From contig JAEOUH010000075.1 in assembly GCA_016839365.1 (NCBI GenBank), positions 1-12,509 of the forward strand: a DNA stretch of 12,509 nt. Reading direction: 5' to 3'. Position numbers and translations under genes: made by a program. Origin of the DNA: Candidatus Hermodarchaeota archaeon (GTDB taxonomy: Archaea > Asgardarchaeota > Hermodarchaeia > Hermodarchaeales > Hermodarchaeaceae). Every line of letters starts with the position of its first letter. Positions within the stretch are counted from its first letter, which is position 1. This document shows positions 493 through 694 of this stretch, piece by piece. A model generated the notes under the pieces. It did no database searches. It saw only the letters and a program-made list of their open reading frames with translations, and was not told the DNA's origin.

Positions 493-692
493 TTAACCTC
501 TTTTCTTTATATGCCCCCATAATATCCAGACCTAGAACAAGATGATATCTGGGCACATATCAATGGAGTACCCACCCTTATACTCAAATTACCCACAGGG
601 AGGTTGAGCTCTCCCAGATCCGCAACGGATCAGAAGAGGTACAAATCTCTTCGTCCCAGTCCTTAAGGCCCGCAAGGGCCTTAACCTCTTTT
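493..692. repeat. 12-bp direct repeat TTAACCTCTTTT at 493-504 and 681-692
   Basis: Two exact copies are visible in the sequence, each followed closely by TTAT. Confidence 0.75.
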
Positions 693-694
693 TT
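543..694 (+). ncRNA. candidate structured non-coding RNA (multi-hairpin, unknown family)
   Basis: Six stem-loops in 152 nt: 543-562, 566-585, 598-615, 617-631, 633-652 and 663-684. G.U extensions, the GCAA tetraloop and the trailing T6 all favour the + strand. TTTATAT at 506-512 is a possible TATA box. Confidence 0.5.
663..694 (+). terminator. GNRA-capped hairpin followed by a T-tract
   Basis: TTAAGGCCC-GCAA-GGGCCTTAA is a perfect 9-bp stem, followed by CCTC and TTTTTT (689-694), just before the stop of the convergent gene at 701. Confidence 0.6.

Follow-up and report, generated by a model that had tools for sequence, protein, structure and literature searches.

A small RNA gene is predicted on the plus strand of an intergenic spacer in a Candidatus Hermodarchaeota archaeon, within the 12,509-nt stretch of DNA analysed here (the window), and its product is judged, by a modest balance of probability, to be a trans-acting base-pairing RNA that is confined to one genus and dedicated to a single operon headed by a 67-codon gene. 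This functional assignment is carried by a C-rich seed complementary to early codons of that gene, by the suppression of synonymous change in those codons, by a matched change in RNA and target, and by a distribution that the two genes share. The small RNA family and the RNA-target pair are new, while trans-acting base-pairing small RNAs are already known as a kind; a literature search found no regulatory small RNA described for Hermodarchaeota or for other Asgard archaea.

The initial annotation of this spacer had proposed a standalone plus-strand RNA of about 150 nt, a reading that is supported by a conserved unit running from a TATA box to a U-tract, by the presence of one copy in each of 15 genomes, and by compensatory base pairs. 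The TTTATAT word that it had placed at 506-512 is present and forms part of a TATA box conserved in the aligned genomes, appearing as the CTTTATAT box in the genus alignment (Table 1). In the SRP RNA gene of the same genome, the TATA box is centered about 27 nt before position 1 of the model and the 3' end lies at a T-run. With the same TATA spacing, the small RNA would start near 534-537 and end in the U-tract at 689-694, giving a predicted length of about 158-161 nt. A terminator scan found the 9-bp hairpin with its GCAA loop and T-run on the plus strand only. The sole ORF in the RNA, 21 codons from an ATG at 541, loses its start codon in the closest relative. The conserved TATA box, the hairpin with its U-tract, and the lack of a conserved ORF are together consistent with an independent transcription unit, whose expression and ends we infer from these signals.

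Table 1. Predicted features of the small RNA locus (window coordinates) and cistrons of the proposed target operon
Feature	Position	Strand	Remarks
Archaeal-type promoter, T-rich stretch and TATA box (CTTTATATG)	501-513	+	CTTTA[T/A]A[T/A] in all aligned genomes
Conserved block between TATA box and predicted start (ATAATATCCAGACCTAGAA)	519-537	+	GACCTAG nearly invariant in 19 variants
Predicted small RNA (long form)	534-694	+	About 158-161 nt; match to covariance model R1 and fold z = -3.83
Hairpin TGATAT/ATATCA, variable 5' domain	543-562	+	71% of cells paired; covariation weak
Hairpin B, GAGTA/TACTC, presenting conserved loop ACCnAnCCUUAUAC	566-585	+	83% paired; no covariation
Hairpin GGGAGG/TCTCCC	598-615	+	60% paired; 5' arm variable, 3' arm invariant
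Candidate seed UGAGCUCUCCCAGA	605-618	+	Best-conserved stretch outside the conserved helices; GCUCUCCC invariant in 19 variants
Hairpin 2, GAUCCG-CAA-CGGAUC	617-631	+	92% paired
Hairpin 3, GAAGAGGT-ACAA-ATCTCTTC (GAAGAGG-loop-UCUCUUC), with G.U pair	633-652	+	90% paired; stem nearly invariant in sequence
Linker GUCCCAGUCC, second UCCCAG word, long forms only	653-662	+	Invariant among long forms
Terminal 9-bp hairpin, GCAA loop	663-684	+	96% paired; one compensatory pair
U-tract, T6 (T6-T9 in relatives), archaeal termination signal	689-694	+	T at at least 5 of 6 positions in every variant; sixth T in >90%
67-codon ORF	L061:279-482 (G000:C48)		First cistron of operon; 4-nt overlap with 93-codon ORF
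93-codon ORF			Second cistron; four-cysteine protein, 93 aa
AAA_22 / ORC-like ATPase with MarR-type winged helix, 386 aa			After 93-codon ORF

The RNA is confined to, and ubiquitous in, the sampled genomes of one Hermodarchaeota genus. By BLASTN, the spacer was detected at 69-94% identity in 13 of the 14 other genus members, and four genomes from the sister genus gave no match. A covariance model (R1) built from 14 sequences identified a single copy per genome in all 15 genomes of the genus (102-196 bits), none in the same four sister-genus genomes, and chance-level matches only among 132 other sampled Asgard genomes (best, 23 bits). A pattern scan of metagenomes contributed three further variants, for a total of 19 distinct sequences. 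These occur in two forms, of 166-170 nt (long) and 144 nt (short) in model coordinates; the short form, 139-144 nt, characterizes four lineages, and in it hairpins 2 and 3 and the linker are replaced by a single hairpin, GACUCCn-ACAA-nGGAGUC. Across the genus alignment the 5' part is variable and UGAGCUCUCCCAG is invariant, followed by three conserved hairpins and a run of T6-T9.

The predicted fold is more stable than expected for its composition. For the plus strand at 535-700, the minimum free energy was -53.2 kcal/mol, compared to -37.6 ± 4.1 kcal/mol for dinucleotide shuffles (z = -3.83), and none of 200 shuffles was as stable; the minus strand of the element gave z = -1.82. Support for each helix was scored on the 19 distinct homologues as the percentage of cells paired together with covariation. 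All of the hairpins listed in the initial annotation were found in the window sequence, and their fates across relatives differ: hairpins 2 and 3 and the terminal hairpin have been retained, hairpin B has been retained loosely, its stem being shifted in register in some lineages while its loop is almost unchanged across the aligned variants, and the hairpins at 543-562 and 598-615 are not conserved. The pairs of the former are broken even in the closest relative, and the latter would partly mask the seed. Likewise, a pseudoknot that had been suggested between CTGGG (549-553) and CCCAG (655-659) is paired in only 43% of cells across the 19 homologues, and the single adenine said to join hairpins 2 and 3 at position 632 is AU, GU, or AA in most relatives. 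As judged from the alignment, these two hairpins and the pseudoknot are particular to the source genome and its nearest relatives. RNAalifold predicted no common fold for the 5' domain, and the best duplexes for long-range helices within it were no better than those of shuffles (mean z of -0.3 over 19 variants). One such candidate, a long-range helix around hairpin B, can be drawn in some genomes (GCAGAU/AUCUGC in G002) and was rejected on the same comparison over the 19 variants.

Compensatory changes were found in two of the retained helices. In hairpin 2, two pairs have changed on both sides (U-A to C-G in six variants and C-G to U-A in four variants), and in the terminal hairpin, the sequence of which is unique within the genome, the basal pair has changed from U-A to C-G in four variants, with G.U pairs in three. 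Hairpin 3 retains its seven pairs in 15 of 15 long forms, with pair 7 alternating between G.U and A-U in a manner that fits the plus strand only; in three of the four short-form variants, the replacement hairpin has U.G, U-A, or C-G as its pair 7. Since G.U pairs would become A.C on the opposite strand, the plus strand is the functional one, and the sense of transcription originally proposed is thus borne out by both the G.U pairs and the compensatory changes.

No known RNA class accounts for the element, in keeping with the original failure to recognize one. At the gathering score, Rfam 15 gave no matches over the whole window, ARAGORN detected no tRNA or tmRNA gene in the window, and a search of positions 380-760 at E <= 10 returned only a meaningless 13.6-bit match to a microRNA hairpin. 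RNase P RNA, SRP RNA, and 5S rRNA were ruled out by above-cutoff copies elsewhere in the genome (G000:C80:3030-3407, C19:70307-70647, and C19:57678-57796, respectively), and these three RNAs are also located elsewhere in the genomes of relatives. That the element is instead a divergent member of such a class, or of the C/D or H/ACA guides, the ribozymes, or RNAs resembling U6 or group II domain V, is extremely improbable. A few words in the sequence do point in that direction: ACAGGGAGGUUGAGC, which we take to resemble the ACAGAGA...AGC region of U6, occurs as such in the source genome alone; GAGCUCUC can alternatively pair with GAAGAG, again in the source genome; and AGAUGAUAU is loosely C-box-like. 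However, neither the U6-like and C-box-like words nor their spacing is conserved. The U6-like box reads ACAAGAA, GCAGAAA, UCAGUGG, or UCAGGAC, among others, in relatives, the distance to AGC varies by several nucleotides, and no Rfam U6 or group II model matched. Box C/D guides carry a C box (RUGAUGA) toward the 5' end and a D box (CUGA) toward the 3' end; in relatives, the C-box-like AGAUGAU at 539-545 is replaced by GAUAAUA, GAUAUUA, or GGCAUCA, among others, and the alignment contains no conserved CUGA near the 3' end. An H/ACA guide would have a hairpin that contains an internal pocket and precedes a conserved ACA; no conserved hairpin comes before the only semiconserved ACA (CACAUA, 554-559), and reading of the alignment found no conserved hairpin that is followed by a conserved ACA.

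The position of the element also raises the possibility of action in cis. As originally described, both flanking genes lie on the minus strand, opposite to the RNA: one encodes a metallo-beta-lactamase (MBL)-fold protein (start, 386-407) and the other a PF00174 molybdopterin oxidoreductase (end, 701). The terminal hairpin begins 17 nt past the stop codon of the Mo-oxidoreductase gene, no run of at least four Ts follows that stop on the minus strand within the element, so that this gene has no T-run of its own there, and the neighborhood is conserved across the genus. The element might therefore be a bidirectional terminator or a 3' UTR structure for this convergent gene, or an antisense to its read-through. 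Such a role is nonetheless improbable. The claim that the element has more structure than a terminator needs is upheld by some 130 nt upstream of the terminal hairpin, which are conserved above the level of the flanking coding sequence and include blocks that are invariant across the 19 variants, ruling out a plain terminator, and to which a separate TATA box is added; moreover, the G.U pairs and the U-tract work on the plus strand only, and the Mo-oxidoreductase ortholog of the sister genus manages without the element at the orthologous locus. In that genus (L059:2040-2640 and L058:1670-2270), the place of the small RNA after the Mo-oxidoreductase ortholog is taken by a convergent gene whose product is a surface protein with repeats and a membrane anchor at its C-terminus.

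Several other observations were made around this locus. A segment at 460-478, ATCAAAAGCTTTTGCCACT, contains the palindrome AAAAGCTTTT, is conserved in the genus, and lies some 55-70 nt upstream of the minus-strand MBL-fold gene; it is probably the promoter or operator of that gene. A 76-codon ORF with no Pfam match occupies 1429-1659 of the plus strand, between the genes for the Mo-oxidoreductase and an M29 peptidase and on the strand opposite to both. The end of a second contig (L002, G000:C87:77884-79510) repeats window bases 1-534, as read from the sequence (BLAST scored only 408-534 of this overlap, at 98% identity), and breaks off immediately ahead of the position at which the small RNA is predicted to start. 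An assembly overlap between strain variants seems a better explanation of this repeat (C87/C55) than a second copy. In two relatives (G003:C45/C63 and G005:C12/C27; L098-L100 and L103), the assembly breaks inside the 67-codon gene and the contig ends overlap. The overlaps at the RNA locus and at the target locus suggest strain heterogeneity at both.

To search for targets, the genome was scanned for complements of the conserved single-stranded stretches of the small RNA. The seed is perfectly complementary over 14 nt to UCUGGGAGAGCUCA (G000:C48:303-316), corresponding to codons 9-13 (+25 to +38) of the 67-codon gene, and the sole complement of its 12-nt core in the 2.2-Mb genome lies at G000:C48:304-315. 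Complements of 14 nt to the RNA as a whole number three in the genome, approximately the chance expectation, so the case for this target stands on conservation and not on the length of the match. When the seed was replaced by composition-matched shuffles, a perfect complement was obtained with p = 0.011 for the genome at large and with p = 0.0012 for the interval from -30 to +60 around any ORF start. The other mapped seed complements of 10-13 nt fall 315 to 1251 nt within long ORFs, with one of 12 nt on contig C85 in short ORFs only. Across the genome, gene starts show no enrichment of the seed complement, which argues for one dedicated target rather than a regulon and rules out a broad anti-Shine-Dalgarno regulon. 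For loop B and the second UCCCAG linker, the target search gave weak or unconstrained matches only. A G-rich stretch close to where the 93-aa gene ends was considered as a target of loop B or the linker and was rejected, its third codon positions varying freely, and a pattern match in genome G004 was attributed to chance, since it lies inside a membrane-protein gene.

The predicted target site is constrained at the nucleotide level. In 13 genomes it reads GC[G/A] TCT GGG A[G/A][A/G] GC[T/A] C, with the third positions of TCT and GGG invariant, GCG kept in 12 of 13, and GCT in 11 of 13. By comparison, variation is seen at each of the 21 codons with four- or six-fold degeneracy in the conserved part of the gene (Fisher p of about 0.004 versus the site). 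The only other stretch with suppressed synonymous change comprises the Shine-Dalgarno sequence and start region of the overlapping 93-codon gene, where nucleotide-level constraint is known. In G010 and G013, the target codon GCT has become GCA, and the RNA of the same two genomes carries AUGC in place of GAGC, restoring the pair. A possible intramolecular partner within the mRNA, UGAGC just before the AUG, is unchanged in these genomes, which places the compensation between the two molecules; G010 and G013 being close relatives, it represents one evolutionary event. Elsewhere in the site, an AGA-to-AGG change in G001 and G005 yields a G.U pair with the RNA, and an AGA-to-AAA change in G009 and G006 leaves an internal A.C mismatch for which the RNA does not compensate. 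A conserved seed with a compensated site is thus supported by the 14-nt match, by the constraint at synonymous positions, and by one matched double change, set beside two lineages with an uncompensated mismatch. Local RNA-target duplexes, computed in 12 genomes, have energies of -24 to -38 kcal/mol; duplex predictions between the whole RNA and the mRNA were set aside, as they yielded unrealistically long duplexes. The predicted unpaired probability of the seed ranges from 0.17 to 0.81. Seed and target are predicted to pair in vivo.

The gene carrying the site encodes a hydrophilic, helical protein of 67 aa. In a survey of 400 Asgard genomes it was recovered from this genus alone (13 of 15 genomes), matching the genus-only distribution of the small RNA; the RNA is present in the two genomes in which the target gene was not found, G004 and G008, both of which are 72-77% complete. 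The 67-codon gene is preceded by five AATGA repeats spaced at 10 nt (L061:215-290), placed downstream of its TATA box, the fifth of which contributes the UGAGC immediately 5' of the AUG. These repeats are conserved in every genome of the genus (L063-L076 in relatives) and in the sister genus. The sister genus has kept the 93-aa gene and the AATGA repeats, and its first ORF is a different one, of 33 codons, with neither the target site nor the RNA. Among metagenomic homologues of the 67-aa protein (P0018-P0025, alignment A4), residues 20-53 are almost unchanged, and the N-termini differ (KNGRAQ, KTGRAQ, VESRAQ, and VSERAQ) exactly at the predicted RNA-pairing site. A type I toxin-antitoxin arrangement was ruled out, given that the 67-aa product is hydrophilic and that, throughout the genomes examined, the RNA is encoded on a different contig from its target.

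In the proposed mechanism, the small RNA would be transcribed from its own TATA promoter and would end at the hairpin and U-tract. Its three invariant 3' hairpins would form a stable body and possibly a protein handle, and the C-rich seed would pair with the early codons of the 67-codon mRNA. Pairing inside the coding region would lower expression of the translationally coupled operon, the sign of regulation being a guess, either by impeding initiation or the first steps of elongation or by rendering the mRNA susceptible to cleavage. Further points count against this model: the site at codons 9-13 is beyond the window in which bacterial small RNAs directly block initiation, and seed-target pairing does not explain the invariance of hairpin 3, the terminal hairpin, and loop B.

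The latter point leads to a different view, in which the small RNA is real and mainly binds protein, as a scaffold, a sponge, or an RNP subunit, the match to the 67-codon gene being secondary or fortuitous. On this view, proteins would recognize the invariant hairpins, loop B, and the recurring UCCCAG words. The sequence of hairpin 3, like that of the terminal hairpin, is indeed invariant beyond what structure alone needs, loop B is nearly invariant without a detectable RNA target, UCCCAG occurs twice in the long forms, and the seed is only moderately accessible. This view is regarded as rather unlikely: it leaves unexplained the suppressed synonymous change, the matched A-to-U and U-to-A change in RNA and target, and the shared genus-only distribution, and no candidate protein partner was found. 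A combination of the two can also be envisaged, with the small RNA as the dedicated RNA partner of the matched operon, its 3' hairpins bound by the 67-aa, 93-aa, or AAA+/winged-helix protein and its seed serving as a guide. Such an RNA-guided or RNA-gated ATPase circuit, arisen with its own leader cistron within one Asgard genus, is highly improbable.

As a trans-acting, base-pairing regulator, the Hermodarchaeota RNA can be compared to characterized bacterial and archaeal small RNAs. The bacterial MicC-ompD pair and RsaE/RoxS use a C-rich, exposed seed that is sometimes repeated, and MicC pairs with ompD downstream of the initiation window and acts via mRNA cleavage rather than by blocking initiation. 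A C-rich seed and pairing within a coding region are features that the Hermodarchaeota RNA would share with them. In contrast to RsaE, its seed complement is not concentrated at gene starts. To our knowledge, small RNAs of the MicC and RsaE type depend on Hfq or RNase E, both of which are missing in archaea.

Among archaea, the closest likeness is to the Methanosarcina mazei RNAs sRNA162, sRNA41, and sRNA154, which are structured RNAs from independent intergenic genes that pair with mRNAs (PMC5867862). For sRNA162, a potential target is a bicistronic mRNA whose products are a transcription factor and a functionally uncharacterized protein; sRNA41 acts within polycistronic mRNAs, where it masks ribosome binding sites (PMC5867862). 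The mRNA that the Hermodarchaeota RNA appears to target is likewise polycistronic, with a DNA-binding regulator encoded last. In contrast, the Hermodarchaeota RNA has no sequence or Rfam relationship to the M. mazei RNAs, its predicted site lies inside the first cistron and not on a ribosome binding site, and both the RNA and its target cistron are confined to one genus of an uncultured Asgard lineage, known from sequence alone. The Haloferax volcanii RNAs sRNA132 and SHOxi are likewise archaeal intergenic small RNAs with identified mRNA targets (PMC6560208, PMC8583180); they are unrelated to the present RNA in sequence and were characterized by genetics, whereas the Hermodarchaeota RNA has been characterized by comparative genomics only.

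Asgard archaea are mostly uncultured, and their regulation must therefore be read from sequence. An RNA-mRNA pair with a defined seed and defined target nucleotides is a concrete and falsifiable proposal, open to tests in vitro or in a surrogate host. If the preferred assignment as a dedicated trans-acting RNA holds, it would add a post-transcriptional layer to an Asgard-specific AAA+/winged-helix operon with a phased AATGA operator, and the occurrence of the RNA and its matched leader cistron in one narrow distribution would be a compact and clear case of a regulator that arose together with its target site.
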